This document shows, piece by piece, positions 15,715-56,480 of a stretch of DNA of 64,000 nt. The DNA is taken from the NCBI GenBank assembly GCA_040390065.1, contig JAZJZE010000011.1, positions 32,001 to 96,000 of the forward strand, given 5' to 3'. The DNA is from a bacterium (GTDB taxonomy: Archaea; Thermoplasmatota; E2; JACPAO01; JAHFTW01). A model generated the notes under the pieces. The model did no database searches. It was not told the DNA's origin and saw only the letters and a program-made list of their open reading frames with translations. Each line of letters opens with the position of its first letter. Position 1 is the first letter of the stretch. A program made the translations under genes and the position numbers.

Positions 15715-16140
15715 GTGCAACTGATTGGGAGCGAACCCGGCATCAACAAGACCACGCTTTGCCGGGAATTGGGCCTCGGCTGGGGAACTGTTTCGCACCA
15801 CCTGCGCGTGTTGACGCGCCGTGGACTCGTTGCGGCCTACGGTCGTGGAAAGGAAGTCCACTGGTTCCCCTGCAGCGTCGATGAGGCCCAGTACCGATGG
15901 TTGTGCGTGCTGCACGATGGCCGGGCGGCGTCAATCGTCAATCATCTCGAGAGGCGTCCCGGCCTGCGGTTGAGTGACCTTTCGGACTCAATCGGGATTT
16001 CGCGGAAAGTCATCCGGCGTCACCTGTCGCAGCTGGGGGAAGAGGGCTTGGTGACCCACGAAGGCGAAACACAGCGGCGCTACCGTTTGCAGCGGCCTCT
16101 TCTCCCTGCGGGGCCGGACGACGTGAGCCATCGACAATGA
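15715..16140 (+). CDS. Tandem winged-HTH transcriptional regulator
   Basis: EPGINKTTLCRELGLGWGTVSHHLRVLTRRGLV and RPGLRLSDLSDSIGISRKVIRRHLSQLGEEGLV. Start is uncertain. Confidence 0.88.
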   Translation: MQLIGSEPGINKTTLCRELGLGWGTVSHHLRVLTRRGLVAAYGRGKEVHWFPCSVDEAQYRWLCVLHDGRAASIVNHLERRPGLRLSDLSDSIGISRKVIRRHLSQLGEEGLVTHEGETQRRYRLQRPLLPAGPDDVSHRQ

Positions 16141-16333
16141 CCCGACGCCTGTTTGCTGGCGCCGACGTTGAGCCGAATGGTGCAAACGCTGCGGCCCCCC
16201 GGTCTCCTCGCGGTCCTCGACTGGGCTGAACCGCCGGCCCCGACCGCGCAGTCCAGGGATCGGACCACAGCGGCTACCCACGGGAGGTAGCCCGGATCCG
16301 GCTTGTCTTGTCTTTGAAATCCGGCCCACCCCG

Positions 16334-16340
16334 TTCAATA
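16334..16340 (+). promoter_or_regulatory. TATA-like box (TTCAATA), shared with the copy at 29141-29147
   Basis: The same heptamer lies 24 and 25 nt upstream of the GTG of Cys-rich peptide copies 1 and 3. Confidence 0.55.
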
Positions 16341-16364
16341 GGTCTGGTGCCTGGTATGGCGTCG

Positions 16365-16673
16365 GTGCCAAAAATGCGCTACGCCATCGTCTACGCCTTG
16401 CTTCTGCTGGCCACAGCAGTCCCGACCGCCACCGCCGATACAGGCGTGTGCGCCTTCCGCTCCGAGACCTGCGGCAACGACGGCTCATCCAGCTGCCCGA
16501 CCTGCGTCATCTTGCCCAGTGGCGAATTGGGCGGCTGCGTGCGCTATCCCGACTGCATGGCGGTCCCAGTTCCCTGCCACCCCGACCCGGGGTCCGGGGC
16601 TACCATTTACTGCACCCAGAACAGCTTTGGAGATGGCGTCTGTTATGGGTCAGTCACGGCAGGCGAAGCGTAG
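16365..16673 (+). CDS. Secreted Cys-rich mini-protein, copy 1 (9 Cys)
   Basis: Signal MRYAIVYALLLLATAVPTATA followed by DTGVCAFRSETCGNDG...CVRYPDC..PVPC...YCTQNSFGDGVCY; paralogs at 23786 and 28786. Confidence 0.88.
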   Translation: MPKMRYAIVYALLLLATAVPTATADTGVCAFRSETCGNDGSSSCPTCVILPSGELGGCVRYPDCMAVPVPCHPDPGSGATIYCTQNSFGDGVCYGSVTAGEA

Positions 16674-18909: not shown

Positions 18910-19938
18910 CTACGCGGGACCCGGGATTGCCCAGGCACGTTCATGCCCATCATCTGAGGTATTTCGGGCGAAGAACACCTGTGCATCGAAGTCATAGCCG
19001 TGGCCGTCGAGGTCCATGGGTCGCAGGATACCCCGTGCCCGTCGCACGACGTCGGCAAACACGTCCTTCATCTCGCCGCGGATGCGTCCCCATTCCGTTT
19101 CAGGGTCGACGGATAGCGCCATGAGACAGGAAAGGTCCGACGCGAACTTGCGCAAGAGGAACGCCAAGCGCCCCTCGGCCTCGTGCCGGTCGCGAAGTTC
19201 GAAAAAGCCTGTTTCTAGTGCGGTGATGAGTGCAAGGGCGATAAGGGACTCCGTGAAGACCCCGTGGAAGACGACGTAGGCGGACCGGCGGTCGTCGGCT
19301 TGGCCGGTGATGGCGGATGCGCGCACCTGGTCCCATGGGGCAGGGTCCGGGAACATAGACGAGAAGAGTGTGTGGCCGCATTGGTGGGCTACGTCCTCCG
19401 TGAGGCCGGGAACGGACACGTGCTTGGGGAGGCTCAGGAACGATATGCCGTGCAGGGCCTCCGTTGCGAATGACCGCAGCCGCTCCTGCCGGGAGAATAC
19501 GAATCCCCGCGTCGTCGCCTGCAAGAGGCGCCAGTAGGCCGGGACAAGAGCCTCAAGGGCATTCAGGGCCTTTGCGAGCGTGGCCATAGCTGCCTCGTCG
19601 TGGACGACCTCCAAAAGCACGGATTGGTCCTCCTCGGGGGTGTACGTCTGGAGCAGCAAATCCATTGCGGTGTACACCGTGAAGTCGCGGATCTCGGCCC
19701 TGCCGTCTCTGGTCGGGGCGAGCACGGAACGCTCGATGGCCCGGCCTGGCTCCGGCTGCCGGGCTGCTGCAAGGAGAAGGGGGTGGAGGAACGCGGCGTC
19801 GTCTGAAAAGTCGAGCCGCGCGAAGGCGTCGGGGGCCATCCGGTAGACGAGGATGCGATGCTGCATCGACCGCTGGTGTTGCCCGAGGAGGGCACGTTCT
19901 TGCCAGTGCGGCCAATCGAGTTCAACGCGGCGGGTCAT
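18910..19938 (-). CDS. aKG-HExxH-type peptide-modifying enzyme (HQxxH variant)
   Basis: SFAT..LHG.SFL...EDVAHQCGH followed by the distal DDRRSAYVVFHGVFTE, the layout of the HExxH RiPP-maturase family. SD GGTGGTG lies between it and the upstream peptide gene. Confidence 0.8.
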   Translation of the reverse strand: MTRRVELDWPHWQERALLGQHQRSMQHRILVYRMAPDAFARLDFSDDAAFLHPLLLAAARQPEPGRAIERSVLAPTRDGRAEIRDFTVYTAMDLLLQTYTPEEDQSVLLEVVHDEAAMATLAKALNALEALVPAYWRLLQATTRGFVFSRQERLRSFATEALHGISFLSLPKHVSVPGLTEDVAHQCGHTLFSSMFPDPAPWDQVRASAITGQADDRRSAYVVFHGVFTESLIALALITALETGFFELRDRHEAEGRLAFLLRKFASDLSCLMALSVDPETEWGRIRGEMKDVFADVVRRARGILRPMDLDGHGYDFDAQVFFARNTSDDGHERAWAIPGPA

Positions 19939-19962
19939 GCGAAAGGCACCACCTAGATCGGC

Positions 19963-20223
19963 CTAGCGGGACAGCTCCTTGGGCGTGACTGGGCCGCGCA
20001 GCGCCATCATGGCATCGAGCTTCTGGAACACCGGCACGAGCTCGGGAATCCAGATTCCGGTGGCCTGGTAGAAGCAGTTGTGGCAGCCAGAGTAGCTTCC
20101 GCCAGTGATGCGGGTCATCAGCTTGTTGACATCAGCCGAGCCGGCCTTGCGCAGGAACTCGTCGAGCGACATCGTTTGCGCCTTGTGCGGCGTTTCGGGC
20201 TTCATGGTGGTTGAGTACGTCAT
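19963..20223 (-). CDS. Putative RiPP precursor peptide with double-glycine leader
   Basis: Leader MSLDEFLRKAGSADVNKLMTRITGG, core SYSGCHNCFYQATGIWIPEL...; ends 24 nt upstream of the HExxH gene. Start could be 20223, 20205 or 20172. Confidence 0.78.
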   Translation of the reverse strand: MTYSTTMKPETPHKAQTMSLDEFLRKAGSADVNKLMTRITGGSYSGCHNCFYQATGIWIPELVPVFQKLDAMMALRGPVTPKELSR

Positions 20224-20351
20224 TCTTTCAGTTCTCCATGTGCGCTCATCCAGGCCCCGGGATGCCCAGCCGAGCACGGAAGCACATGAATTGGGGGCGG
20301 GAGTTAGGCCTTGGGCGTGTGGAAAAATTACAAAAGTCCCAACCTAACCAA

Positions 20352-20368
20352 TTTCATTAAATATGAAA
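20352..20368. promoter_or_regulatory. Palindromic operator overlapping an AT-rich promoter
   Basis: TTTCAT-TAAAT-ATGAAA within an unusually AT-rich patch (about 20320-20370), upstream of the precursor gene. Confidence 0.55.
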
Positions 20369-20611
20369 CTCCGGGCGAAGAATCACGCCGCTCGCCCGAA
20401 CTCCTGCTTCGCAATTTCCGGACCAGCAAGGCCACGCTGAATGATGCGCGCCCACGCGACGCAGGCGTCATGGATCCATCGGAGCAGGCCGCCAGCGGTC
20501 CACGCACGATGCCGTAATGGATTGTGTGCTCCAGCCAAATTCGGCCTCGGGGGGAGGTTCGGCCGGGAACCCTCTACCCTATTGTGGCGATTTCCCCTCT
20601 GCCACCTGAGC

Positions 20612-23780: not shown

Positions 23781-24043
23781 AGGCGTCACAGGTTCCGCGT
23801 GTCAACTGTGGTGTGCCCCACGTTGGCCGACGCGTAGCAAAGGCCGTCTCCAAAGCTGTTCTGCGTGCAGTAGACGGTAGCCCCGAAGCCCGTGTACGGC
23901 TGGCAGGGAACAGGGGCGTCCAAGCAGTCCGGGTAGCGCACACAGCCACTCAGTTCGCTTCCGGGCAAGACCCAGCAGGCAGGGTACCCGGACGAGCCGT
24001 CGTTGCCGCACGCGTCGGAGCGGAACGCGCACACCCCCGTGTC
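23781..24043. repeat. Direct repeat of 28781-29043 (~94% identity by manual count)
   Basis: About 15 mismatches in about 263 nt; offset 5000 bp. Confidence 0.92.
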
Positions 24044-24109
24044 GGCGGAGACGGTCGGGACAACGGCAAGGGCCGCGAGCAGGAGTATGCCGGCAAGGAT
24101 GGGTCGCAT
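23786..24109 (-). CDS. Secreted Cys-rich mini-protein, copy 2 (8 Cys)
   Basis: Signal MRPILAGILLLAALAVVPTVSA; mature part nearly identical to copy 3. Confidence 0.88.
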   Translation of the reverse strand: MRPILAGILLLAALAVVPTVSADTGVCAFRSDACGNDGSSGYPACWVLPGSELSGCVRYPDCLDAPVPCQPYTGFGATVYCTQNSFGDGLCYASANVGHTTVDTRNL

Positions 24110-24250
24110 CAGGGACACCAAGCCAGGCAAGGCTGCCCGTTCGACATCCTTTGTGGAGAAAAAACCGGCATGCCGGAGCCGTAACGCGCCAGCCGCGGCC
24201 CGACGAGGCCGACTTGGAAGGTGTGCCTGAAGTCAGCCCCGCGGGAGTCG

Positions 24251-25667: not shown

Positions 25668-27326
25668 GTGTTCGCCGTCGTGGCCGACCGACCGTCCCGG
25701 CATTCTGCGGTCTGGCCGTGCCTCATCCTCCTGCTTTTGACGGGCTGCGCGGCGGCAGTGCCGCTTGCAACCACGGCAGGTCGCGACATGGACCCGCCCG
25801 GAAGCGAGAGGGGCGAGGCGCCGGCCAATGCCACGCAGCGGACGCCCCACCGCTCAGCGTCGGCTGTGGAGGTGACCTTCGATGACACGAACTACTTGGC
25901 CACGCAACACGTCACCCTTTCCAACGATTACGGCGGCGCCCCGGCGGCCCGCGTGCACCTGGCCACGCCCCGCGGTGGCGTGATGGCGCGGCCTGGCCAA
26001 CGTAATGCGTACGAAGTCGAGGCGGTCCTGCACGCGCGAGGCCCCACCGAACAATCGGCGCGCAACCAAATCGCCGCCATGCACGTCGTGGCGCGCGACC
26101 GCCTGGGCCAAGGAAAGCTGTTCCTTGACGTCGACGTGGAATTGGCGGCCGCCAAGTCCGATTTCCCCTGGGATGCCCTGGACACCTTGGGCGGCACGCC
26201 CAGGTGGGCCGATATCGTTGCCACGTTGCCCGCCGAAGCGGACCATGACCTCGATGCGCAGACGACCGACGACGCCCTGGCTGTGACTGGGCTGCGTGGG
26301 CAGTACCTCGATTTGCAGACGACGACGGGTCGGCTCGCGGTTGACGGCCAATGGGCGGCAGCCCGTCTGCGAACCACCTATGGCGACCTCGACTTGAGTG
26401 GGGAGTACTCCGAGGCGTCAGCCACAACTGAACGGGGCAGCATTTTCGTGCGCGGCACCTACGGCGACTTCCAGGCGGTGAGCCAAAGCGGCGAGATCCG
26501 CGGCACGGTGCACCCACAAGACGGTGCCCGCCACGCCCTTTCCACCGAGGATGGACCCATCCACTGGGACCTCGAGCAGACTCCCCTGTTTGGACTCAAC
26601 CTGACCGCCGCCTCTTCGCGCGGCCAGGCACAACTGAGCGTGGCCGGCGTGGCGACGCAGGGTCAGGGCGAGTTGCACCAAGCCGTCCATGCCGACGCGT
26701 GGCAGGTGGTGACGGTCCAGGCCTCAAGTGACCGCGGCGACGTCGTCCTCAGCGCACCCGCCGTCGTGGCTGTCGGGAACAGGCCGTTCGACTTGCAGGT
26801 CGGGACGGCGTTGCTCGGCCTCGGGGCCATCGCCGTCGCCGCGAAGCTGTTCGGCGGACGCCTCCTCGCACTGTTCACCCGTCTCGACACGAACCAGGTC
26901 CTCAACCACCGGCGGCGGCAAGCCATCATGGACCACGTCACGGAAAATCCTGGGCGATCCTTTAGCGACCTGCGCCGCGACATCGGGCTGCCCAACGGCG
27001 TCCTGGTCCATCACCTTCGCGTCCTCGCGGCCCATGGGCTGCTTGTCTCGAAGGGCCGCGGCAACCGCCGGTGCTATTATGCACCGCGGGCCGCCGTCCA
27101 TCCGTACCTGACGACGGTCCAGGCCAGGATCCTGGCCGCCCTGGATGCTGAACCAGGCATCACCCAACAGGAGCTTCGTGACCGCGTCGGCATCCCGCGT
27201 GGCACGCTCGGATACCATCTCGGCGTCCTCCGAGACGCGGGCCTGCTGCATGAAGCCAAGAAAGGCCGCTTTACGCGATACGCGCCCACTGCGCCGAATG
27301 CCGTGGACAACGCAAAGCCCTCGTAA
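25668..27326 (+). CDS. Membrane-spanning one-component regulator: extracellular DUF4097-like beta domain, TM, tandem wHTH
   Basis: LLLTGC lipobox-like N-terminus; TTxGx(I/L) beta-strand repeats; TM followed by LFTRL; two wHTH (NPGRSFSDLRRDIG.., EPGITQQELRDRVG..). Confidence 0.88.
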   Translation: MFAVVADRPSRHSAVWPCLILLLLTGCAAAVPLATTAGRDMDPPGSERGEAPANATQRTPHRSASAVEVTFDDTNYLATQHVTLSNDYGGAPAARVHLATPRGGVMARPGQRNAYEVEAVLHARGPTEQSARNQIAAMHVVARDRLGQGKLFLDVDVELAAAKSDFPWDALDTLGGTPRWADIVATLPAEADHDLDAQTTDDALAVTGLRGQYLDLQTTTGRLAVDGQWAAARLRTTYGDLDLSGEYSEASATTERGSIFVRGTYGDFQAVSQSGEIRGTVHPQDGARHALSTEDGPIHWDLEQTPLFGLNLTAASSRGQAQLSVAGVATQGQGELHQAVHADAWQVVTVQASSDRGDVVLSAPAVVAVGNRPFDLQVGTALLGLGAIAVAAKLFGGRLLALFTRLDTNQVLNHRRRQAIMDHVTENPGRSFSDLRRDIGLPNGVLVHHLRVLAAHGLLVSKGRGNRRCYYAPRAAVHPYLTTVQARILAALDAEPGITQQELRDRVGIPRGTLGYHLGVLRDAGLLHEAKKGRFTRYAPTAPNAVDNAKPS

Positions 27327-28726: not shown

Positions 28727-28780
28727 GCAACCAAGACCGTTCCAGAAAAAAGGGGGAATGGGGAAGAGGGCTCGAGCTAG

Positions 28781-29043
28781 AGGCGTCACAGGTTCCGCGT
28801 GTCAACCGCGGTGTGCCCCACGTTGGCGGACGCGTAGCAAAGGCCGTCTCCATAGCTGTTCTGCGTACAGTAGACGGTGGCCCCGAAGCCCGTGTACGGC
28901 TGGCATGGAACAGGGGCGTCCAGGCAGTCGGGGTAGCGGACACAGCCGTTCAGCTCGTTTCCGGGCAAGATCCAGCAGGCAGGGTACCCGGACGAGCCGT
29001 CGTTGCCGCACGCGTCGGAGCGGAACGCGCACACCCCCGTGTC
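28781..29043. repeat. Direct repeat of 23781-24043
   Basis: See partner copy. Confidence 0.92.
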
Positions 29044-29115
29044 TGCGGTAGCGGTCGGGACTGCTGCGGCCAGCAGAAGCAAGGCGTAGACGATGGCGTA
29101 GCGCATGTTTGGCAC
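28786..29115 (-). CDS. Secreted Cys-rich mini-protein, copy 3 (8 Cys)
   Basis: Signal peptide like copy 1, mature part like copy 2. Confidence 0.88.
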   Translation of the reverse strand: MPNMRYAIVYALLLLAAAVPTATADTGVCAFRSDACGNDGSSGYPACWILPGNELNGCVRYPDCLDAPVPCQPYTGFGATVYCTQNSYGDGLCYASANVGHTAVDTRNL

Positions 29116-29441: not shown

Positions 29442-31496
29442 ATGTTCACCACACGCCTTTTGACCCGGCCGCTCCAGTCAGTGCGCGTGGCCAGCGGCGG
29501 GGCAATCCGTGTCGCCGTGGCGATTACCCTGCTCGCGGCCGCCGCCGCCTTTGCAGCAGCCCCGCATGGGGCCGTGGTCGAACCTTCGCGGCTCTCGTAT
29601 GGCGACCACGCCGTGTATCACGTTTCTCGATTCGACGACTCGGGCCACGCCGTCTCCAGCCCGGTCCAGCGACTCGACGTCGACGTAGGCGCCACGACGA
29701 CGGTCGCCGATCACGCCGGGCGGCCGCGCCTTGCCACTCCTTTGGAGTTCAGCTTCGGTAAGACTGAAGCCGGGCGCGAGGCACAATTCATTCGCAGCTA
29801 CTGGCTCGACGGCAGCGACGCCGTATCCGTCAGTACCCAAGGCCACATGTGGCGGGGCAAGGCAAGCTTGCCGGCGCTTTCCAATTCCTCCACGGATTCC
29901 ACTCAATCCGTTTCCTGGCACGACATCCTTTGGGACGCCGCACCAATGCCGTGTGGATTCGGGTTGGTTGGACCCGAAAAGGCTGGCGCCGATTGCCGGA
30001 CCCATTGGACGGCCGGCTCGCCGTGGGCCGATGACATTGAGGGCCCTCTGGCTGACCTCTTCGGCTCGCCCGGCCCCGGCCACTCCGCTTACCGCCTCTC
30101 GCTCGTAGGGACTGGCCGCTCGCGCCTCGATTGGTCCACGCCGTCGACGGTGGCGGCCCTGCCTGCGCTCGTACAAGCCCCCCGCTCGATGCAAGGGCCA
30201 GGCGGCACAGGCCCGGGAATCTTCCTTCTCGGCGACGCCCTCCGGGCCATGCAGAACGACCCGGCGGACGCAAGTGCCAGGGACCTTGTCCGACGCCATG
30301 CGGACGCCTACCTGGCGTACGCCCGGTCATACGAGGCGGTCAACGCCGCAGGGCAAACCCAAGTGGCTTGGCACCTCGCCGTCGTCGGCGGTACAGAACG
30401 CGTCGAACGGGCGGTCACCCGCGAAGCAGCTCCAGTTCCTGGCCTGCCGCCCGTCACCCGGGTTGTCCATCCGTCGTCCATGGAGTATGCGATAGACGCT
30501 GCCCCGGCCACCCTGGCCCCATCCTTCCTCGCCCCCTCCCGTATGGCCTCCATCGACTCATTGCAGGTCGCTTTCTTGGCTGCCACGGGCCAGCAGCCTA
30601 CGGGCTGGGGTTTTTCCATCGCCTGCCCCAGCCTTTCCTGCCTGACGATTGACGTCCATGTGCAAGTATTCAAGGAGGAATTGTACCCCGCAGGCGCGAA
30701 CGGCGTTGGCTGGCAACGCAATGTGGCCTCCCGTGACCGCCTCGACGCGTCAGGTGATGGAACATTCTTGGGCCTTGGCCACGCCGCCTTCGGCCAACCC
30801 ACGCCAAACATCCTGGCAACCGGCCCCCTGGGCGAACGCGACCCGGCACAGCCTTCGAGGATGCCTTGGCCGGTCACGCCCGCCACTGTGGCAGCCGGCA
30901 CGCTCGGCCTCCTTGGCGCCATCCTGGCCCTTTCGCCCGCCTGGAAATACGCCGTCGCCCTATTCTCGAGGATTGAGGCATCGCGCATGCTCGACCACCC
31001 GGTGCGGCGAAGGGTCTACGACTTGGTGCAGGAGGATCCAGGAATCCATGCGCGGCTCGTCGCAACGCGCCTGGGCATCGCCGGAAACACGGCGGTCCAT
31101 CACCTCGCTCGGCTCGTCGGCGCCGGCTACATCGGCGAACGCCGCATCGCAGGCTACCACTGCTACTTCCCGCGCTCCGGCCTTGACGAACGCCTGCAAT
31201 CCGCCATTCCAGCTTTGAAATCAAGAGGCGCCACGGCCGTTCTGAACACCGTTGCCGCCCAAGGCTCGCCGTCCTTCCGCAGCCTCATGGCCGCCACAGG
31301 CCTGGGATACGCCACCGTCCACCACCACGCCGAATCCCTTTGGAAGGCAGGCCTGCTTTCCGCCGAGCGTGATGGCCGCACACGGCGCTTCCGCCTCACC
31401 GAACTTGGCCGGCGTATCCAGGAGCAGGCCTTGGCGAGTATCGGGAGGTTCCCCACGCAGCCTAAGAATCCCGCACAGTTGGGTGGACATGCATGA
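29442..31496 (+). CDS. Membrane-spanning one-component regulator: large extracellular domain, TM, tandem wHTH
   Basis: Signal-like N-terminus; TM followed by LFSRI...LDHPVRRRVYDLVQEDPGIH; second wHTH ATGLGYATVHHHAESLWKAGLL. Confidence 0.88.
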   Translation: MFTTRLLTRPLQSVRVASGGAIRVAVAITLLAAAAAFAAAPHGAVVEPSRLSYGDHAVYHVSRFDDSGHAVSSPVQRLDVDVGATTTVADHAGRPRLATPLEFSFGKTEAGREAQFIRSYWLDGSDAVSVSTQGHMWRGKASLPALSNSSTDSTQSVSWHDILWDAAPMPCGFGLVGPEKAGADCRTHWTAGSPWADDIEGPLADLFGSPGPGHSAYRLSLVGTGRSRLDWSTPSTVAALPALVQAPRSMQGPGGTGPGIFLLGDALRAMQNDPADASARDLVRRHADAYLAYARSYEAVNAAGQTQVAWHLAVVGGTERVERAVTREAAPVPGLPPVTRVVHPSSMEYAIDAAPATLAPSFLAPSRMASIDSLQVAFLAATGQQPTGWGFSIACPSLSCLTIDVHVQVFKEELYPAGANGVGWQRNVASRDRLDASGDGTFLGLGHAAFGQPTPNILATGPLGERDPAQPSRMPWPVTPATVAAGTLGLLGAILALSPAWKYAVALFSRIEASRMLDHPVRRRVYDLVQEDPGIHARLVATRLGIAGNTAVHHLARLVGAGYIGERRIAGYHCYFPRSGLDERLQSAIPALKSRGATAVLNTVAAQGSPSFRSLMAATGLGYATVHHHAESLWKAGLLSAERDGRTRRFRLTELGRRIQEQALASIGRFPTQPKNPAQLGGHA

Positions 31497-41521: not shown

Positions 41522-44500
41522 TTGTCGGCCAAATCCGTGCAGACGGAATCTCTTGGCCAGCCAACGGGCAGTCATGGAACGGTAGCTGCCTCGGCCAGGT
41601 CGATTATTCTTGCCGCATTGCTGCTGATGTGCCTTGCGATTGCCCTTGTTCTGCTTGTTCCGCAAGCAAGCGCCACACCCGTTGCGCCCGTACCCGACTC
41701 GCCGGCCGAGAACTCCGTTCCTCCAATCTACAACGACGGCGACGGTACCTACGTGATTGCCACGTGGGACCACGCCATCCCGTGTCGGAACGGAATCTAC
41801 ATGGCAGCGTCATATGGCCTGGGAGGCGGCTACGCCGGATCCGACATTGGGTCGACCTGCACCGGCCACATCTGGGCCGGATGCGGATCAACATGGAGGG
41901 TGAAATACCAAGACTCCAGCGGGTGGAGTGCGTGGAGTGAACTCCGACACTACGGAGGATCATGTGAAACCCCGCCGCTGCCGCCGCCACCGCCTCCACC
42001 GGCCCCGCCGACGCCGCCCCCCGAATGGGGGCCAACGCCGCCAAGTCCCGACTGCTCGGATGGAATCGACGACGACGGCGATGGAATGACCGATGCCGCG
42101 GATCCTGGCTGCACCGGAGACCCCACGCATACAGAAGCGCCCTGGAATGCCCCCGAGCCAACGCCGGCCGGTCCGAGCCAGTGTAACGATGGCATCGACA
42201 ACGATGGCGACGGGTACGTCGACATGCAGGACCCAAGCTGCGACTACAACCACATGTCCACGGAATCCCCGGTCAACGCGGCGCCGCCGCCCCCGGAATG
42301 CGGGGATGGCATTGACAACGACGGCGACGGATACGCAGACAGCAATGACCCGGAATGCCAACATGAGCCCTACACGGTCGAGTCGCCCTGGAACGCGCCT
42401 CCCCAATGCACCGACGGGACTGACGATGACGGCGATGGCCTGATTGACGCCGCCGACCCCGGCTGCGGCTACTATCCCTTCGACCGTGAAGACACCCCGG
42501 CACCACCGCCGAGTCCAATCCTTTCTATTTCGGGAGAATGCGGGCCCCAGCCCGGTCGGATTGTCCTGACATGGACAGCACAAAACACGAACGACGTAAC
42601 CTTGCACCGCATCACCGGCTCCGGCACGACCCTAGCAACCTCCGCGCCGCCATCCCCAATTACAGATGACAGGACTGTTATCGGGACCGTCTATTACTAC
42701 AGCCTCAGTGCCCCGTGGAACGGCAACACGATTTACAGCAACCAAGTCAGCGTGACGGCCGGCCGCCCCCCCGACACGCCGACGGGCGTCACAGCCACCG
42801 CCCAATCCCCTGGCACATCAATCCATCTCACATGGACGCCCGGAAGCACCGGCGGATGCGAACCAGTAACGTACAATGTTTACGGCTCCAGCTACGCCAG
42901 CGGAACGTTTGAGATCCTTGCCAAGGACCTCACGACTCCCGAGTACACGCAGTCTTCTTTGCCGCCGGGTACCTGGCGCTTCTACCGCGTCTCTGCCCAG
43001 AACCCCACAGGCGGCAGTGCCCAGTCCGACCTAGCATATGCACGGACATGGGATGCAGCCACCCCGCCAACGAAATTCCACGTCCAACCCGGTGACAAAC
43101 AACTGGTATTGACCTGGTCAGGACCATCGTCGAGCGGCGGGGGAACGATTACCGGTTACAGGCTCTCGGGAGCGCACCCCGGCGATTCGATGACCGTCCT
43201 GCACGACGGCGCAAGCTGGTACTCACCCACCGCCAGCGGCTACACCTACCCCCACACCGGTCTGACCTACGACGAGACCTGGGATTACGACATCGAGGCC
43301 ACAACCGGGGTTGGTAATGGCGGCTCGGCCACGGACAGCGCAAAGACATTCGGCGTTCCGGCCATTCCCATGCACATCATTGGCAAGGCCGGCACCGCGG
43401 CCGGCCAGATTGCCCTAACCTGGCAACCTCCTAACATGGACGGGGGGTATCCCGTCACCAAATATTCGGTCTTCCGAGGTCTCAGCGACGCCCTCTGTTC
43501 GACAACCTTCCTCGGGGATGTCACCGACCTGTCGACCTTGCCGTTCGTCGATTCCGGGCTCGCGGCCGGCATAACTTACTCCTTCTGCGTGGACGCCACC
43601 AACGAAGCCGGTCCGGGCAAGACAGGGGTCGTCCGCGTGACGCCACCAGAGCGGCCATCGCCCCCACGGGATTTGCAGGCCGCCCTCGACACGCCAAACA
43701 CGAAGTTGACGTGGCTCGTCCCCCTAACGGACGGAGGTTCACCGCTCACCGGCTACGGCCTGTACACTTCGCCCGACGGTACCACGTACACAGGGCCGAC
43801 GATGCTGCCCGTTGCACCCCTGAGCTATTCTAGCCTTCCGTGCAGTGCGAGTTGTCACTACTATGTCACCGCCTGGAACATCTACGGAGAGAGCCAGCCC
43901 TCCAACATCGTGCCAGCTGTCGCAACGTTTCCGCAAGAATCCATCAGAGGAACGACGCCTGGTACTGGCATGAAGCTCAAGCAGACCCTCAACTGCGGCG
44001 TGGAACAGAACGAAACCATCAACGCCGTGACCGGTCAATTCGTCGCTTCCCTGTGCGTCATGACTGCCCGGTCCGAATACAAGGGCATGAATTTGACGAT
44101 TCTTGCCACCCACCGTTCTGACTCGTTGTCCTCAGACTTCATTGGCAAGAATTGGTTCTTATCCATTGACCGCCGGCTCGATTTCGTCACACAAGGAATC
44201 ATCCTGAACGACGGAACCGGAAGGCTGGACGGATTCCTTGAGACCTCCCCCGGCGTCTACAAGTCCCCCCCGGGCTTCTACGAGACGCTCACACCCACTG
44301 CCAGTGGTTACGACCTTGTGCATGTCGGCGGCATCACGGAGAAGTTTGATTCGCACGGCCTGCGGACCAAGGTAGAGGACGTTTTCGGCAACTCAATCCG
44401 GTTCTCGTACGCAGACGGAAAAATCGTCGAGATTACGGACGCCCACGATCGCATTACCCGGCTCCAGTACGACGGGGACAGGCTTGCAACAATCACTGAC

Positions 44501-47500
44501 TTCGATGGTCGGGTAACTGAATTCGCGTACGGCGGCGACGACCTAGCGGGAATCAAGCTCCCGGCGGCCACTGCCGATGGCCCCGCCACCACGCACGAGT
44601 TCACGTACACGCCCCAGCACAATGTCCGGGCCGTCAAGGATCCCGCAGGGCACGTTTACATCACGAATTCGTACGATGCCCTGGACCGCGTATCGGACCA
44701 AAGCGATGGAACGTCGTCGTTCCGTCTGACCTACACGCCAAGCCAGTCTACCACGACGGTCACGGACAGAAACGGAAACATCGTCGGCTGGGGCTACTCC
44801 GGCGTCTTGCCGATCTTCAAGAAGACATACATGAACCGCGGTGTAGCGCCCGACCAGCTTCTGGAATACGACACCAGCTTCACGACGACCGCGGACCTCG
44901 AAATCAGCCAGATTCTGCAGGCGGATGGCATTCAAACCTCCTTCACGTTCGACAGTGCAGCATCAGCTGCGTTGCCTCATGGAAACCTCAGGAGGCAAGA
45001 GATTGCCGCGCCGTCCGGGGCGGGTCTCGCTCCCCTAGTTGCCACGTACGACTACGAGCCACTCTACCAAAACGTCCGCTCTGTTACAGCGCCCGAAGGA
45101 AACGACGCCACCTACGTGCCCCAAAACGGGGGATCTACTTCTCCGGCACGGTACACGACGACCTACTACTACGGCGACGACGAGGTCACCATGGGCGACT
45201 TGAACGGCGACGGCATTGCCACCGGCGAGCCCCACGGCAGGCCAGTGCGCATCGTTCACCCTCTCCTCAATCCGACAGGCTCACCCTCGCCCCTCACGGA
45301 TGGCTACCAGCCGCAAATTGAATGCATCCAATACAATGCGCACGGCCAGGAAACACAACACATCTACCCAGACGGGCGCCTTGTCGGCACCCTCTACTAC
45401 AAGTCGAACGGAATCCCTGGTGACCCATCCGACCAGGAAGGTTTCGTCTTCGCAGCCCTCGAATACTGGGATGCCGATACATCGTCGTGCGCCCCCCTGA
45501 GTAGCGGCTCGATGGCCGCGATGGCGTCGCCCGCAGCGCCCGAGAGCGACCAGCCCCAGACGCCTGTCGGGGAATTCCTGAACTGGACATACACGTACGA
45601 CAATTCCGGGAACCTCCTGACGCAAACGGACCCCACCGGCAACGTGACCACGTTCGAGTATGACCGCCTGAACCGGATGACTCGAACAGTCCTCCCCGGA
45701 CCCGCAAAGGCCGACATCAAATTCTCATATGACGCAGATGGAAACCTCGTTACTCGCCAGACGAAGAACTCCGTCCAACTGCCAGATGGAAGCATTGCAA
45801 CGGACCCTACCAACCCATACCTGACGGACACATTCGCCTACGACGCACTCGACCGGCGTACCGACGAATGGCTAAGCGCCGCTCGTCCCACTGGTGCAAT
45901 AGACAGCACAACGGCCCTGACCTTGCATGGCAAGTTCGGCTACGACAAGAACGGAAACCTCGTCATGGTGCGACGGGCTCCATCCGCCCAAGGAATTGAC
46001 GGAAACGACGCCACGACCTACATCTACGACGAACGAAACCAAATGCAATACGCCACTACGGGAGGCTTGAACCCGCTGTTCAGCCGCCTCGCCGCAAACA
46101 ATCAAGTCACCACGAGTGGCTTGACGGATCCATTTACGTTGTACTTGCACGATACGGCCGTGGCCAAGACCACGGCCCAGTGCATCTCCGATACGCAAGA
46201 GTGGACTCCGGGCGACATCATCGCGAACCCGGGAAAGGCTCCCCAAATTGTTTGCACCAGTCTCTATGCCTGCACCACGGGGTGTCCTGCGCCTACTTGT
46301 GTCTCAGTCCCCCCCAAGCTCCTGTGCGCGCCAGAACCTGTTTGCGCGGCCGGATCGCTGCTCGGCCTGTCAAATCCCGTCGACGTGACGTTGGCGCCGC
46401 CAACTCTGACGGCCAATCCGCCGCCTTGCGTCGCCGCTAGCCTCGGAGACACCATGGACCCCGCTTGGCCCACCAATCTCCGGCCTCAAACGGATCCCAT
46501 TCTCGTACCCGACGCCACGGGCGGCGCAAGCGCCCGCCTGGTCGTGGGCGAGACGCCGCTCCAGAATGCCAAGGTTTCCTGGACGTACACGCCCTCGCCG
46601 CCCTTGATGGTGCAGGACGCCCGCATCATGCTCGACTTCTGGGCGATGCAGACGGACACGACTACGACACCCAACACTTGGAAGGCTCGCCTCTACAGCG
46701 GAGCAACTCTATTGGCCTCCAACGACCCCGTCGCAGGAACGACGTTTTCCAATCGACCGATTGGAGAAGCCCACGAATACCGCATCGCCCTCGGGACGGC
46801 GTCCTTCACGGTGTCCTCCTTGCGGCTCGAAGTCGAGGCCGTCGGGGCCCAGCCGGGCCGCCTGGTTCTCATGGACTCGCCCCGCGCCCCTTCCCGCCTT
46901 GAGATTGGCACCGCCGCAACGACCAGCAACGACTACGATGCGGGCGGCCGAATATTACAACAAAGCGATTCGGATGCGCGTACGACCCGCAACGAGTATG
47001 ATGGCATGGGTCGTCCAACGACCATGACTGCGCCGGACGGAACACGCACGGTCCAGACGTACGATGCCTCGGGTCGGGTCGTTGACAAGAAGGTCTACGG
47101 CGCCACCAGCGGCATCGGTTTCCAGACAACTCCCGGGCCGTCTGTTCTGCTGGCTAAATCACGCCTCTTCTACGACGAAGCCGGCCGCCTGTTCCGCACT
47201 GACGTTGGCCGCTTCGACCCGACCACTGGCACCAACCTGCCAGATGCGGGCCTCTTCCCCGGCGATGGCTTCGCGTCAACCCTGGTCGATTACGATGCTG
47301 GTGGCCATCCAATCAAGGTGATCTCGGACACTGGAGCCACGCACGAGTACCAGTACAGCGGGCTCGGTCGCCTCACTTGGGAAAAGGATGTAGGCGAAAA
47401 CGAGGCCACCTACAGCTACGGAGCGAATGGGCGCCCAATGAAGATTGACGTGACGATGACAGAACTGGGCCCGGCAGGCACATGGACCCTGCCGGCACAC

Positions 47501-49996
47501 ACCGTCACGACGCTGCTCTCCTATGATTCCGCAGGCCATCTCGTCCGAACCGTGGACATCTTGGGCCAGGCAAGGAGGGCGGGTTACGACTCCAGGGGCA
47601 ACGTGGCCTGGACCACTGACACAGCGGGCCCGCTGTTGCCCGACGCTGCGGAGGCATACGACGGCTTCATCAACGCCGATGGCAACGTGGTAAGCTACAG
47701 CTACGACGGGAACAACCGGCTGATCGAAGTCCGGCGCGATCTCCACCAGGACGGCACGACTAACAGCGTGCTGACGGGCTACGTGTATACATTCCAGGAT
47801 TGGGACGCCGACGGGCGCCTCGCTGCAATCACGGACGACATGGGTCACAAGACGACCTACACTTACGACAGACTCAACAATGTCCTCCGCGAGACGATGG
47901 CCGACGGCACCGCGACCAACTATCTCTACGATGCAACGGGTCATGCCGTGCGCAGGACTGATGCCCTAGGCAACGCGGTGGCCATCGGCTTGACTGCGAC
48001 CGGCCTTCCTGCACGCGCAGCCGTAGCGGGGCCCGCTACCCTGTCGACGCTTCTGACCTACGAGTATGACGGCCTCGGGCGCGTGACGCGGGCAACGGAC
48101 AACAACAATCCTGGCCTTCCTGCGGACGATGCAACGACAGTCCTGCACTACGACTCGACCGGAATGCAGGTCGCCGACGTACAGAATGGGATGGGCGTTT
48201 CGCGGACGTACGACAGCGTTGGCCTCGCCACTGGCCTGACCTACCCCAACGGACGAGCCGTCCTCAAGGCGTACGACGCCGCGGGCCGCCTCACGCAAGT
48301 GGCCGATCCGGGAACGCCTCTGCCGAATCCGATTGTCAACTATGCCTACGGCACCATGCACCTCGGGATGAAGGACTATGGTGGGATGGCCACCTATTTC
48401 GGCTACGACAGTGCTGGCCGACTGGCAGGTATGACTGGGGCTCTGCATTATTCGTTCCAGTACGATCGCCAGGGGAGCGTCACTGGGGAAGTTAACTATG
48501 CATACCCTCACGAGAGCCGTGCAGCTTCCTATGACTCTCTGGGCCGACTCGTGGATGAGGACACGTCCAACTTCGCCAACCTCTACACAGTCTCGCCTCC
48601 GACGGACTACCAGGCGTCCCACATGACGTGGGAGCTTGACACGTCGAACGACTGGGTCCACCTCGCCTCCACACATGTGGCGGGTACGGCGACGGAGGCT
48701 AGGTCGCATGGCCCTGTCGACCAACTCAGGAGCATCACCGTGGACGGCGTCAAGACGACCTACACCACCTCCGCGGCCGGCAACCGGCTAACCGACGGCA
48801 CCCAGGCATACACCTGGGACGCGTTCAACCGCTTGCGCAGCGTGACGACCCTCGCGACCGGAATGGAGGCGGGCCACTACACGTACGACGCCCTCGGGCG
48901 GCGAACCTCAACCGTGACGCCGCTGGCAACGACGGCGTTCTACTACGACGGCCTCAACGTCATCGAAGAACGAAGCGGCACGGGAACGCTGCTCCGCCAG
49001 TTCGTCCACGGTTCGGAGGCAGACGAGCACGTCGTGCTCGACCGGAACCTGGACGGCGACAATTCGGCCACCGGCCCTCTTGACGAGCGTGTCTACTATC
49101 TGCAGGACCGCATGGGCAACGTCGTCGCCTTGGTCAGCTCCGGCACCGTGCGCGAACGCTACGTGTACGACCCGTATGGGCACATGGTCATCATCTCAAA
49201 CCTTGTCTTGCCCGCGGCGGCCATCCCGGTGTCCGCCTTCGACAACCCGTACACGTACACAGGGCAGCGTTTTGACTCCGAGAGCGGACTCTTCTACTAC
49301 AAGGCTCGATACTACGACGCGGAGGCAGGCCGGTTCCTCAGCCGTGATCCGGTTGGTGCATGGGGAACACCAAGCCTTGGGAACGGATACTCCTACGTTT
49401 CGAACATGCCGCTTCAGTTCCGGGACGCCACGGGCAAGATGTTCGGAATTGACGAGCTCGTATCTGGATTTGTTGGTGCGGCGAGTGGCCTTACGGTTCA
49501 CTTGCTTACAGATTGTTTTAGCGGAGATGGGTGCAATGACTCCCTCGGAAGCTATGTCAATGCCGCTGTGGATGGGGCGTGCCTTGGGGTGGCCGTGGAC
49601 GACGCGCCCGTTGGTGTCGGAATCGCGCTTGGGGCCACGTGCGGCGCCATTGGGAACATTGCGGGACAGGCAACCGACATCGCCACAGGGGCACAATGCG
49701 GACCGGACTTCAACAGTTTGGCGGTGGACACGGCGATGGGAGCCGTGAGCGGCGGCGTCGGTGCCAAGATGAAAATCAGGAAGGTTCACTTGAACGTGGG
49801 CGCGGGGAGCATGCGGGCGGTTGCGAAGGGAGCGCTCACCGCTCTGCGAAATGGAGGAATCCACGACCTGTCGTACAAGACCGTCGGGAAAATGTACGTG
49901 GCGACGCTGGTACCGACATTCATCACGGATGCCGGGTCGGATCTTACTGAGCCTGGCCTGGAATACCTTGTGGACCCGGGGCGTGCAGGTTGCTAG
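41522..49996 (+). CDS. Rhs/YD-repeat polymorphic toxin with signal peptide, 4 CxDGxDxDGDG repeats, about 5 FN3, DUF6531-like domain and Rhs core
   Basis: INAVTGQF...IGKNW (DUF6531-like); many YD repeats; core PYTYTGQRFDSESGLFYYKARYYD...GRFLSRDP...YSYVSNMP...DATG; ~186-aa Gly/hydrophobic C-terminal domain. Confidence 0.93.
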   Translation: MSAKSVQTESLGQPTGSHGTVAASARSIILAALLLMCLAIALVLLVPQASATPVAPVPDSPAENSVPPIYNDGDGTYVIATWDHAIPCRNGIYMAASYGLGGGYAGSDIGSTCTGHIWAGCGSTWRVKYQDSSGWSAWSELRHYGGSCETPPLPPPPPPPAPPTPPPEWGPTPPSPDCSDGIDDDGDGMTDAADPGCTGDPTHTEAPWNAPEPTPAGPSQCNDGIDNDGDGYVDMQDPSCDYNHMSTESPVNAAPPPPECGDGIDNDGDGYADSNDPECQHEPYTVESPWNAPPQCTDGTDDDGDGLIDAADPGCGYYPFDREDTPAPPPSPILSISGECGPQPGRIVLTWTAQNTNDVTLHRITGSGTTLATSAPPSPITDDRTVIGTVYYYSLSAPWNGNTIYSNQVSVTAGRPPDTPTGVTATAQSPGTSIHLTWTPGSTGGCEPVTYNVYGSSYASGTFEILAKDLTTPEYTQSSLPPGTWRFYRVSAQNPTGGSAQSDLAYARTWDAATPPTKFHVQPGDKQLVLTWSGPSSSGGGTITGYRLSGAHPGDSMTVLHDGASWYSPTASGYTYPHTGLTYDETWDYDIEATTGVGNGGSATDSAKTFGVPAIPMHIIGKAGTAAGQIALTWQPPNMDGGYPVTKYSVFRGLSDALCSTTFLGDVTDLSTLPFVDSGLAAGITYSFCVDATNEAGPGKTGVVRVTPPERPSPPRDLQAALDTPNTKLTWLVPLTDGGSPLTGYGLYTSPDGTTYTGPTMLPVAPLSYSSLPCSASCHYYVTAWNIYGESQPSNIVPAVATFPQESIRGTTPGTGMKLKQTLNCGVEQNETINAVTGQFVASLCVMTARSEYKGMNLTILATHRSDSLSSDFIGKNWFLSIDRRLDFVTQGIILNDGTGRLDGFLETSPGVYKSPPGFYETLTPTASGYDLVHVGGITEKFDSHGLRTKVEDVFGNSIRFSYADGKIVEITDAHDRITRLQYDGDRLATITDFDGRVTEFAYGGDDLAGIKLPAATADGPATTHEFTYTPQHNVRAVKDPAGHVYITNSYDALDRVSDQSDGTSSFRLTYTPSQSTTTVTDRNGNIVGWGYSGVLPIFKKTYMNRGVAPDQLLEYDTSFTTTADLEISQILQADGIQTSFTFDSAASAALPHGNLRRQEIAAPSGAGLAPLVATYDYEPLYQNVRSVTAPEGNDATYVPQNGGSTSPARYTTTYYYGDDEVTMGDLNGDGIATGEPHGRPVRIVHPLLNPTGSPSPLTDGYQPQIECIQYNAHGQETQHIYPDGRLVGTLYYKSNGIPGDPSDQEGFVFAALEYWDADTSSCAPLSSGSMAAMASPAAPESDQPQTPVGEFLNWTYTYDNSGNLLTQTDPTGNVTTFEYDRLNRMTRTVLPGPAKADIKFSYDADGNLVTRQTKNSVQLPDGSIATDPTNPYLTDTFAYDALDRRTDEWLSAARPTGAIDSTTALTLHGKFGYDKNGNLVMVRRAPSAQGIDGNDATTYIYDERNQMQYATTGGLNPLFSRLAANNQVTTSGLTDPFTLYLHDTAVAKTTAQCISDTQEWTPGDIIANPGKAPQIVCTSLYACTTGCPAPTCVSVPPKLLCAPEPVCAAGSLLGLSNPVDVTLAPPTLTANPPPCVAASLGDTMDPAWPTNLRPQTDPILVPDATGGASARLVVGETPLQNAKVSWTYTPSPPLMVQDARIMLDFWAMQTDTTTTPNTWKARLYSGATLLASNDPVAGTTFSNRPIGEAHEYRIALGTASFTVSSLRLEVEAVGAQPGRLVLMDSPRAPSRLEIGTAATTSNDYDAGGRILQQSDSDARTTRNEYDGMGRPTTMTAPDGTRTVQTYDASGRVVDKKVYGATSGIGFQTTPGPSVLLAKSRLFYDEAGRLFRTDVGRFDPTTGTNLPDAGLFPGDGFASTLVDYDAGGHPIKVISDTGATHEYQYSGLGRLTWEKDVGENEATYSYGANGRPMKIDVTMTELGPAGTWTLPAHTVTTLLSYDSAGHLVRTVDILGQARRAGYDSRGNVAWTTDTAGPLLPDAAEAYDGFINADGNVVSYSYDGNNRLIEVRRDLHQDGTTNSVLTGYVYTFQDWDADGRLAAITDDMGHKTTYTYDRLNNVLRETMADGTATNYLYDATGHAVRRTDALGNAVAIGLTATGLPARAAVAGPATLSTLLTYEYDGLGRVTRATDNNNPGLPADDATTVLHYDSTGMQVADVQNGMGVSRTYDSVGLATGLTYPNGRAVLKAYDAAGRLTQVADPGTPLPNPIVNYAYGTMHLGMKDYGGMATYFGYDSAGRLAGMTGALHYSFQYDRQGSVTGEVNYAYPHESRAASYDSLGRLVDEDTSNFANLYTVSPPTDYQASHMTWELDTSNDWVHLASTHVAGTATEARSHGPVDQLRSITVDGVKTTYTTSAAGNRLTDGTQAYTWDAFNRLRSVTTLATGMEAGHYTYDALGRRTSTVTPLATTAFYYDGLNVIEERSGTGTLLRQFVHGSEADEHVVLDRNLDGDNSATGPLDERVYYLQDRMGNVVALVSSGTVRERYVYDPYGHMVIISNLVLPAAAIPVSAFDNPYTYTGQRFDSESGLFYYKARYYDAEAGRFLSRDPVGAWGTPSLGNGYSYVSNMPLQFRDATGKMFGIDELVSGFVGAASGLTVHLLTDCFSGDGCNDSLGSYVNAAVDGACLGVAVDDAPVGVGIALGATCGAIGNIAGQATDIATGAQCGPDFNSLAVDTAMGAVSGGVGAKMKIRKVHLNVGAGSMRAVAKGALTALRNGGIHDLSYKTVGKMYVATLVPTFITDAGSDLTEPGLEYLVDPGRAGC

Positions 49997-51923: not shown

Positions 51924-52598
51924 CTAGTGGGCGTTGCAGCTGTAGGCTGAGCCGACGTGGGCGAGTTTGCCAGTCAGGGTGAGGCCGGAGTCCTGCATTC
52001 CGCTGGGCGCCGCCGTCGTCGTCATGCCGGGGTGGAACGTGGCGCCTTCGCTCATCGGCATCGCGAAGGAGCTGGTGCCTTCCTCAGTTGTCGCCGTGCC
52101 TAGGAACCACAGGACGTCTTGGTCGGTGACCAGGATGCGGCCGTCGTACGTGGTGTCGGTCCAGGATCCGTTCCAGTCGTCAGACGTGACGCGGCAGGTG
52201 ACTTTGACCTTGTCGGCAACGCCGGCAATCTTCTCGGTTCCTACTGGGGGCAGGTCGCAGCCCATGGTGAGGCTGCCGAAGATGTTGGAGGCCGACATCG
52301 AGGCGTGAGATGGCCACAGGCCGGTCTTGGTGGAGCTGGCCGTGGAGTAGACGGCCGCGCCGGGGGCGGGGTAGTCTGCGTGGCCGTCGGTGTGGCTGGC
52401 AACGAGGGCAAGGCCCGTGCTCGCGCTTGTTGCGGCGCCGACGCCGATGGATGACGCGTTGGCCGAGGCGGATGAGCTACTGCAGCTGACGCCGCCGCCG
52501 GTTCCGATAGGTGCGCCGCTGGCGCTTGCGGGCGGCGACAGTACCGCCACGACCAGGAGGATGGCTGCCGAAAATAGGCCAAAGCGTTTGGTGTTCAT
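51924..52598 (-). CDS. Secreted Ser/Thr-rich hypothetical protein
   Basis: Signal MNTKRFGLFSAAILLVVAVLSPPASA; 4 Cys. Confidence 0.8.
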   Translation of the reverse strand: MNTKRFGLFSAAILLVVAVLSPPASASGAPIGTGGGVSCSSSSASANASSIGVGAATSASTGLALVASHTDGHADYPAPGAAVYSTASSTKTGLWPSHASMSASNIFGSLTMGCDLPPVGTEKIAGVADKVKVTCRVTSDDWNGSWTDTTYDGRILVTDQDVLWFLGTATTEEGTSSFAMPMSEGATFHPGMTTTAAPSGMQDSGLTLTGKLAHVGSAYSCNAH

Positions 52599-53019: not shown

Positions 53020-53140
53020 GCGGCCATGTCCCTCTCCTCCGCAGCAGGAGGGACGGCCCCGCCGCGATCTTCGCCCGCCACTTCCCGTCACTTCCCGCGA
53101 TCTGGTGTTTTCACTTTCTCTCCTATTGGGTACCTCCCGG
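53020..53140. repeat. Dispersed repeat A, long copy; direct repeat of 3321-3430
   Basis: See partner; contains an internal duplication CACTTCCCG x2. Confidence 0.7.
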
Positions 53141-53185
53141 GCACGTAACCTCGACGTTTGTCAGAATGTGCCCCACCGTTCTCCA

Positions 53186-56452: not shown

Positions 56453-56480
56453 GTTGGTCGAAGGAATGCGTCGCAGGGGA

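Follow-up and report, generated by a model that had tools for sequence, protein, structure and literature searches.

Peptide hydroxylases of the aKG-HExxH type have been recognized as an iron-oxygenase fold only recently, and the available portion of one report describes their reactions as still unpredictable (PMC13060819). According to the accessible parts of two reports, enzymes of this family bind iron through their HExxH motif, require 2-oxoglutarate (2OG), and hydroxylate His, Asp, Phe, Gln, or Pro; they can also cleave the peptide backbone oxidatively, and stand-alone forms that are not fused to a radical S-adenosylmethionine (SAM) enzyme are known (PMC13060819, PMC12636437). Here, we describe a locus in a 64,000-nucleotide stretch of an archaeal genome assembly (GCA_040390065.1; the whole stretch is called the window below) in which two adjacent genes encode an 86-amino-acid (aa) precursor-like peptide and a 342-aa protein whose HQCGH motif has Gln in place of the family's Glu. 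The original prediction for this DNA, made from its letters alone, had read the pair as a minimal archaeal operon for a peptide that is made on ribosomes and then modified posttranslationally (RiPP), consisting of a double-glycine precursor and a stand-alone aKG-HExxH-type enzyme. We find that the pair belongs to a bacterial family of such loci and probably reached the archaeon by horizontal transfer. Literature searches, with subscription papers and supplements outside their scope, returned work on HExxH enzymes and nothing on a Gln-bearing clade, on Cys-His precursors, or on an archaeal example, which agrees with the earlier statement that no such archaeal system has been described.

The pairing of peptide and enzyme was found from both directions when homologous loci were collected. 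A metagenome scan seeded with the peptide recovered 48 loci, in 43 of which the peptide gene is followed, in the same orientation, by a gene for an HQxxH enzyme. In the other five (L027, L036, L040, L051, and L057), the contig breaks off before any enzyme gene, in some cases behind a reductase-like gene that comes after the peptide; the full order of peptide, reductase, and enzyme is seen in L025, L031, and L052. Among 19 genome loci seeded with the enzyme, 15 have a peptide gene upstream, comprising nine with a peptide of the window's kind (type A) directly upstream and six Bacteroidota loci with a short peptide, while the remaining four have at most 541 bp of upstream sequence. Furthermore, enzyme clades track peptide types, with SH-aLRT support of 99 for a clade whose peptides carry twin-arginine translocation (Tat) signals, 100 for a clade of enzymes fused to a reductase-like domain, and 98 for a clade in which the window enzyme groups with L001, from a metagenome-assembled genome of Zetaproteobacteria, and L024. 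Altogether, the peptide and the HQxxH enzyme are a conserved and mobile pair, in line with the two-gene system that the original prediction had supposed. In Rhodococcus sp. T7, over the region compared, peptide, enzyme, and reductase open reading frames (ORFs) with identical translations and coordinates occur on two contigs of one assembly, of 29 kb and 950 kb (L006 and L007), a doubling that reflects either duplication or assembly redundancy.

Direct reading of the window sequence places the peptide ORF, a short spacer, and the enzyme ORF in that order on the minus strand. Both ORFs, the spacer with its Shine-Dalgarno-like element, and the strings EDVAHQCGH (enzyme residues 181 to 189) and RSAYVVFHG (residues 218 to 226) were found as the original prediction had described them, and its count of 44 residues after the Gly-Gly agrees with ours. 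The features of the locus are as follows, in window coordinates.

19963 to 20223, minus strand: precursor-like small-protein gene, 86 aa, ATG at 20223, stop codon (19963 to 19965) included
20098 to 20103, minus strand: codons of Gly41-Gly42, of which Gly42 is invariant in 31 of 31 homologs and Gly41 varies (T, R, A)
20080 to 20085, minus strand: codons of Cys47-His48, invariant in 31 of 31 homologs and present in all type-A loci
20011 to 20058, minus strand: codons of residues 56 to 71 (GIWIPELVPVFQKLDA), a C-terminal block nearly invariant in the alignment of type-A peptides
19939 to 19962, minus strand: 24-nucleotide spacer with the Shine-Dalgarno-like element AGGTGG, from direct sequence reading
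18910 to 19938, minus strand: HQxxH protein gene, 342 aa, ATG at 19938, from the ORF and its homologs
19372 to 19386, minus strand: codons of His185-Gln186-Cys187-Gly188-His189, the presumed metal-binding motif, in which Gln replaces the Glu of HExxH
19249 to 19287, minus strand: codons of Arg218 through His225 to Glu230 (RSAYVVFHGVFTE), a second conserved block found by alignment

Since the 24-nucleotide spacing is tight, it suggests that the two genes are cotranscribed. Neither ORF is a chance ORF, because each has many homologs, and their third-position GC contents (GC3; 0.77 for the enzyme and 0.82 for the peptide) are the values of real genes in a 64 to 67% GC genome. The original prediction had started the peptide at MSLDEF. 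The start is most likely 17 codons upstream, at ATG 20223, because the gene call on record (P0156) is 86 aa and identical to the product of that ATG, and because the N-terminal extension upstream of MSLDEF (P.T.HKAQ) is kept in the closest homologs. Similarly, residues 1 to 24 of the enzyme align with homologs and support ATG 19938; one stored gene call (P0001, 318 aa) starts later. Pfam and NCBIfam scans of both window proteins returned nothing meaningful. PADLOC gave no match for the pair or six neighbors, and readings of the locus as a defense or toxin-antitoxin system were dropped for want of a supporting match.

A search with the peptide returned 31 homologs with up to 65% identity. The family is marked by a leader-like N terminus (..MSLDEF.. 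in the window copy), a Gly-Gly hinge, a Cys-His pair, and the conserved C-terminal block, and the window peptide, which reads TRITGG-SYSGCHNCF around the hinge, retains all 17 invariant positions. The Cys-His pair, 5 to 6 residues past the Gly hinge, also occurs in the six short Bacteroidota peptides and comprises the only core residues common to every peptide type. Since the Bacteroidota and type-A peptides share only the leader pattern and Cys-His, this dyad appears to be the site that the enzyme cares about, and we propose Cys47-His48 as the modification site. The CHxC core noted earlier is present in the window copy, but its second Cys is not conserved among the 31 homologs, and the idea of a CHxC metal site was dropped for that reason. 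Within the C-terminal block, G56 to F66, K68, and D70 are invariant, and Q67, L69, and A71 are at least 90% conserved. The hinge is less uniform: the window junction is T-G-G, others are T-G, R-G, or C-G, the Tat-signal clade has E-G-H/K or C/R-G-S rather than Gly-Gly, and five of the six short Bacteroidota peptides have Gly-Gly. The peptides match no NCBIfam or Pfam model, and the predicted model of the window peptide shows no confident fold, its predicted local distance difference test score being low at 0.57. Searches of the peptide profile against the PDB returned only kinase matches at an E value of 0.3, which is chance level.

An exhaustive homolog search with the enzyme, counted as cluster representatives at 50% clustering, yielded 451 representatives at E ≤ 1e-3, of which 272 pass E ≤ 1e-10 and 9 pass E ≤ 1e-30. 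We aligned 116 sequences, namely, the window protein and 115 of the 150 matches listed, leaving aside the gene call that corresponds to the window protein, any short fragments, and three ~830-aa forms. H185, Q186, H189, G164, R257, and F317 are invariant in all 116, and the window enzyme keeps every clade-invariant residue. All full-length enzymes of the collected loci carry the Gln, within HQCGH, HQGGH, or HQCAH. The substitution that the original prediction had pointed out is thus a rule of the clade and not a mutation of the window copy. R218, H225, T229, and E253, among others, are at least 90% conserved, and the canonical W-R-x-D-P-R-P block places its Arg at R218 in the alignment; the second block may supply a third metal ligand or a 2OG binder. 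This Arg and the conserved His residues are the features that hint at Fe(II)- and 2OG-dependent hydroxylation of a precursor peptide.

We asked how this clade relates to the aKG-HExxH hydroxylases, which are modeled by TIGR04267. Matches to this model at E ≤ 0.1 were obtained for 78 of the 116 aligned sequences (best, 1.1e-13). When 10 members were scanned singly, five matched and two reached 40 bits (41.3 and 40.1), and in whole-genome searches, the L004 and L010 enzymes scored 36 and 25 bits, respectively. The clade profile also matched PDB entry 22nu_A ("Radical SAM core domain-containing protein") at an E value of 7.6e-4, with HEFQH aligned under HQCGH. For a profile-to-profile comparison, canonical TIGR04267 proteins were drawn from one bacterial order (81 genomes around G041, 14 of which have a match above the cutoff). 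An hhalign comparison of the clade profile with 13 of these proteins gave a probability of 96.5% and an E value of 7.5e-10 over 301 columns, motif on motif, compared with 1.1% for a reversed control. In comparisons of predicted models rather than solved structures, the window enzyme (predicted template modeling score of 0.78) resembles an aKG-HExxH cluster with a template modeling (TM) score of 0.71 and a cluster of cyclophane radical SAM-HExxH fusions with a TM score of 0.64. In five genomes that hold clade members, no canonical HExxH paralogs were found, and the only matches were the HQxxH proteins themselves. These profile and model comparisons point to the window enzyme being a remote, divergent relative of the aKG-HExxH superfamily, with common ancestry and fold, and the HQxxH enzymes seem to form a large, uncharacterized sister clade of the hydroxylases.

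The pair recurs in at least four architectures: the two genes alone, the pair with a reductase that may be fused to the enzyme, the pair with a C39 exporter and a beta-lactamase-fold protein, and the Tat-signal form. The first of these, seen among type-A loci, includes the window and its closest full locus, L024, in which the pair stands alone between convergent housekeeping-like genes. Ten loci with at least 1.3 kb of downstream sequence are without a reductase-like gene. The label "minimal" in the original prediction therefore describes a form that recurs in 10 loci where this can be judged, but one form among several. In a second type-A group, an aldo/keto-reductase-like protein of 420 to 485 aa is encoded after the enzyme or between peptide and enzyme or is fused to the enzyme's C terminus; such fusions (~845 to 863 aa) occur in L046, L047, L049, L050, and L053, and proteins of ~820 to 840 aa are also found among the enzyme homologs (P0080, P0091, and P0133). 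The third type-A group has a twin-arginine signal (..SRR.ALG..) on its peptides and E-G-H-T-F-M-M-C-H in place of N-G-G. These Tat signals precede the leader-like region in L003, L009, L034, L045, L057, L058, and L061 to L067, with Gly-Gly nevertheless kept in L034. In the six Tat loci whose downstream sequence is long enough for a verdict, the reductase is missing. Our literature searches turned up no Tat-routed RiPP-like precursor.

The Bacteroidota loci differ in layout. Their peptides share the leader pattern M.RLSL.ELKA....I.GG and G-x4-C-H and end in hypervariable tails unrelated to one another. Six loci encode a homolog of one 734-aa protein, whose L005 copy contains Peptidase_C39, ABC_membrane, and ABC_tran domains, and the loci also encode an HlyD-like protein and a metallo-beta-lactamase-fold protein of ~490 aa. 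This is a classical exported-RiPP arrangement. In the neighbor clusters of type-A loci, no C39 peptidase was found, and the host genome of the window (89% complete) has no match to Peptidase_C39 (PF03412). No Radical_SAM match was found on the window's contig (C11, 226 kb), and the nearest ABC ATPase on it lies ~78 kb from the cassette, consistent with the original prediction that neither a radical SAM enzyme nor a transporter is nearby. The same prediction had Gly-Gly leaders cut by peptidase-containing transporters; with the Gly-Gly not universal in the family and no C39 peptidase found in the genome, such cleavage is unsupported for this copy. A further feature of Bacteroidota L005 (6779 to 7933), L010 (6344 to 7510), and L018 (6411 to 7508) is a conserved protein of ~380 aa encoded between the short peptide and the enzyme. 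It has an H-E-L-T/V-H string and no Pfam or NCBIfam match and might represent a second component of zincin type.

The host is an archaeon. Its genome carries full-length archaeal small-subunit rRNA, partial archaeal large-subunit rRNA, and a gene for TFIIB, recognized by two domain matches side by side in one 387-aa frame, and its estimated contamination is 0.3%. The contig is likewise archaeal in origin, since the rest of C11 matches the genome's tetranucleotide signature at 0.985 to 0.994, three HVO_0163-type helix-turn-helix proteins are encoded on it, and contamination is low. In contrast, the 8.2 kb around the cassette correlate with this signature at 0.916, which falls short of the 5th percentile (0.931), and GC content falls to 0.60 to 0.63 over window positions 16 to 24 kb against 0.668 for the genome. 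The enzyme is single copy in the host, and it was not found in the 40 relatives searched (12 of the same genus) or in 400 other genomes of the phylum. Given a compositionally odd island, one occurrence among 401 phylum genomes, and the fact that all 19 GTDB-species matches of the enzyme are bacterial, the simplest reading is that the cassette was probably acquired horizontally from a bacterium. Best identities to homologs are 31 to 40% for the enzyme and 59 to 65% for the peptide. The archaeal setting claimed by the original prediction is thus borne out for the host, but the family itself is bacterial. Flanking synteny was sought in genomes of the same genus: what matches the left-flank protein there is no closer than a paralogue (~31%), and 19.8 kb of right-flank DNA gave short matches only, the best being 431 bp at 73%.

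We consider it probable, by a modest margin over even chances, that the cassette is a horizontally acquired, self-contained two-gene peptide-modification system in which an HQxxH iron oxygenase acts on Cys47-His48. The 86-aa product would be the substrate, its N-terminal part (from ..LSLDEF.. to the Gly hinge) serving as a recognition or leader region, with the LSLxEF stretch docking the peptide on the enzyme. The 342-aa protein, judged from its fold relatives, would be a mononuclear-iron oxygenase that holds its metal via His185, His189, and probably His225, and its iron center would oxidize the Cys-His dyad. The likeliest reaction would be beta-hydroxylation of the His, an oxidation or cross-link involving the Cys, or both; His beta-hydroxylation has precedent in the family, and the Cys-centered oxidation or cross-link is the bolder option. 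Removal of the leader by a C39 peptidase is improbable in the archaeon, where a modified small protein of ~70 to 86 aa would be the product. Since nothing indicates Gly-Gly cleavage or dedicated export, the product probably stays a small modified protein and might act in or near the cell, perhaps by using its modified Cys-His for metal or redox chemistry; we consider a secreted bacteriocin less probable. The antimicrobial or metal-binding product suggested in the original prediction would likewise be hypothetical. That two genes suffice is backed by the pair-only L024 locus and the 10 loci without a reductase.

Several observations weigh against this explanation. The window enzyme has no match to TIGR04267 at E ≤ 1 and so lies below the curated cutoff of 40 bits, and its Gln186 stands where the family has Glu, with both His residues kept. 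By model score and by motif, it falls outside the formal definition of the family, and the original assignment to the aKG-HExxH type holds as remote kinship but not as a hit in the profile search that had been proposed for it. With Gln in the place of the motif Glu across the clade, one cannot assume that its enzymes use iron or 2OG just because HExxH enzymes do. An aldo/keto-reductase-like third protein is kept or needed in many relatives, and no homolog of it was found in the host genome. A segment of ~60 residues, present in the N-terminal half of the nearest relatives (L024/P0002), is missing from the window enzyme, which also sits on a long branch (1.58) in the enzyme tree and may be impaired. 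Finally, identity to the L024 pair is 59% for the peptide and 31 to 34% for the enzyme. A peptide better conserved than its enzyme is unusual for a RiPP core and suggests that the small protein has constraints of its own.

Part of this evidence would also fit a decaying relic of transfer, in which the enzyme has been crippled by its N-terminal deletion and left without helper proteins, so that no modified product is made. The missing residues, the long terminal branch, and a genome in which no reductase-like, C39, or exporter gene was found would all be expected of such a relic, as would a single occurrence in the phylum within an atypical island. We nevertheless regard this as unlikely, given two intact ORFs with host-like GC3, an enzyme with all of its clade-invariant residues, a peptide with every one of its invariant positions, and an intact 24-nucleotide coupling with its Shine-Dalgarno-like element. 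Moreover, the same two-gene layout is found in L024 and nine other loci.

Another alternative is that the small protein is no substrate in the RiPP sense but a metal- or cofactor-binding protein with Cys-His ligands for which the HQxxH protein is a dedicated maturation factor or metallochaperone, loading it before Tat export in some bacteria and performing no oxidative chemistry. The Tat system typically carries folded or cofactor-loaded proteins, and one whole clade of the peptides, the clade without Gly-Gly, has clear twin-arginine signals. The extreme conservation of the C-terminal block and the better conservation of the peptide than of the enzyme would also be at home here. However, the Bacteroidota counterparts look like substrates, being short Gly-Gly-leader peptides with hypervariable tails and C39 exporters, and the small protein's model has no confident fold. 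The enzyme's relatives are oxygenases, and its fusion to a reductase-like domain in some loci points to redox chemistry, so that we hold out little prospect for a purely metallochaperone role. An ordinary zincin-type metalloprotease that cleaves the peptide, for instance, to remove the leader at Gly-Gly, is very improbable: the available text of one report describes the aKG-HExxH fold as zincin-like and PflC as capable of metal-dependent hydrolysis of truncated substrates (PMC12636437), and the window cassette holds no other protease, but the catalytic Glu of HExxH is Gln in all 116 sequences, no peptidase family is among the Pfam or NCBIfam matches, the Bacteroidota loci already have a C39 peptidase for Gly-Gly cleavage, and the Tat clade is without Gly-Gly.

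A bolder version of the chemistry, to which we give only a slim chance, is that the HQxxH clade consists of three-His iron enzymes rather than 2OG hydroxylases. Such an enzyme would bind the substrate thiolate and join the adjacent Cys and His side chains in a cross-link of thiohistidine type, either a thioether or a sulfoxide. For this joining of Cys and His, the ovothiol and ergothioneine sulfoxide synthases offer a likeness. If true, the cross-link would be a ribosomal counterpart of ovothiol and ergothioneine chemistry, and its products would be small redox- or metal-active proteins that are exported by Tat in some bacteria and were captured by one archaeon.

One further element accompanies the cassette, and several features of the surrounding DNA were observed.

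20318 to 20367, no strand assigned: AT-rich stretch of 50 nucleotides, 28% GC, with a TTTAAT-like element, a candidate archaeal promoter

This stretch lies 95 to 145 nucleotides upstream of the peptide ATG in a divergent intergenic region and is among the lowest 0.01% of 50-nucleotide windows across the 64 kb; from its composition and position, it is a candidate promoter for the peptide gene. A look for sequencing runs that contain the stretch returned one DNA run, probably from the source sample, and no RNA run. Around the cassette are three paralogous genes for small Cys-rich proteins with signal-peptide-like N termini, at 16308 to 16673 (plus strand), 23786 to 24130 (minus strand), and ~28761 to 29062. 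Two of them form 238-nucleotide inverted arms (16419 to 16656 and 23824 to 24061, 79% complementary) around a cassette segment of ~7 kb, and over ~300 nucleotides the third copy shares 92% identity with the second; none has a Pfam, NCBIfam, or PADLOC match. Winged-helix proteins of HVO_0163 type or ArsR type are encoded at 15715 to 16140, 25668 to 27326, and 29442 to 31496 (all plus strand), and one of them has a DUF4097 "toastrack" domain as its fusion partner. BNR-repeat and PKD/cadherin surface proteins and an S8 peptidase are encoded close by, in what looks like a variable surface-protein region. Farther along, a giant ORF of 2,824 aa at 41522 to 49996 (plus strand) lies in a stretch of strong AT skew and negative GC skew. 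The stretch from 52000 to 64000 encodes, on the minus strand, Baseplate_J (63218 to 63964), DUF6519 (57452 to 61150), and a PG_binding_1 protein (53186 to 54496), genes of the kind usual for contractile injection or tail-like particles. In this archaeon, they may belong to a prophage tail module or to an extracellular contractile injection system.

Returning to the two-gene modification system as the favored explanation, its interest lies mainly in a defined mining target and less in a single archaeal occurrence. With 451 representatives, a motif that always carries Gln, and its own family of Cys-His precursors, the HQxxH clade is a well-defined target for genome mining of a new peptide modification. 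Cultured holders include Rhodococcus sp. T7, Spirosoma lacussanchae CPCC 100624, and Spirosoma utsteinense LMG 31447. The archaeal copy adds that the two-gene core can cross domains intact, which supports the pair being sufficient on its own.

Compared with known systems, the window enzyme is closest to the aKG-HExxH beta-hydroxylases (TIGR04267/IPR026337, including the ChlH domain of ChlBH, BpmH, PflC/PosC, and PesO), with which it shares a remote but significant relatedness over ~300 columns, the same predicted fold, and a gene position next to a ribosomal precursor with a leader-like N terminus. The differences are that every member of the window clade has HQxxH, that its second block reads D-x-R-S-x-Y-x-x-x-H-G-x-F-T-E rather than the canonical W-R-x-D-P-R-P..G-x-Y, that most members fall below the curated cutoff, and that the precursors form a separate family marked by an invariant Cys-His. 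In addition, the published examples, as far as the available portions of the reports describe them, accompany other tailoring enzymes (radical SAM enzymes, MNIO enzymes, and others), whereas an enzyme of the window clade can be the sole one. A second likeness is to double-glycine leader peptides exported by C39 ABC transporters, as in class II bacteriocins and the Gly-Gly-type peptides of Bacteroidota. The N-terminal pattern M..LSL.E(L/F)K......(I/L).GG matches, the window peptide has the Gly-Gly, and Bacteroidota members of the same enzyme clade adjoin a C39-ABC exporter and HlyD. Unlike in those systems, however, no C39 peptidase was found in the host genome, the first Gly is variable, one clade is without Gly-Gly, and the 44 residues after the window's Gly-Gly are highly conserved rather than hypervariable.

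Finally, bufferins, which the available part of their description presents as MNIO-modified, signal-peptide-bearing, copper-chelating RiPPs (PMC11626156), offer a comparison for mode of action and not for membership. On that description, both systems pair a small, conserved precursor whose modified site includes a Cys (a prediction here) with an adjoining iron-enzyme gene, and a general secretion signal, Tat in part of the window's family, takes the place of a dedicated transporter. Metal binding by the window product is hypothetical. The systems differ in the enzyme, MNIO/DUF692 in bufferin loci and an aKG-HExxH fold here, and in the signals, Sec type there and Tat type here, and the window peptide carries no signal peptide of any type.

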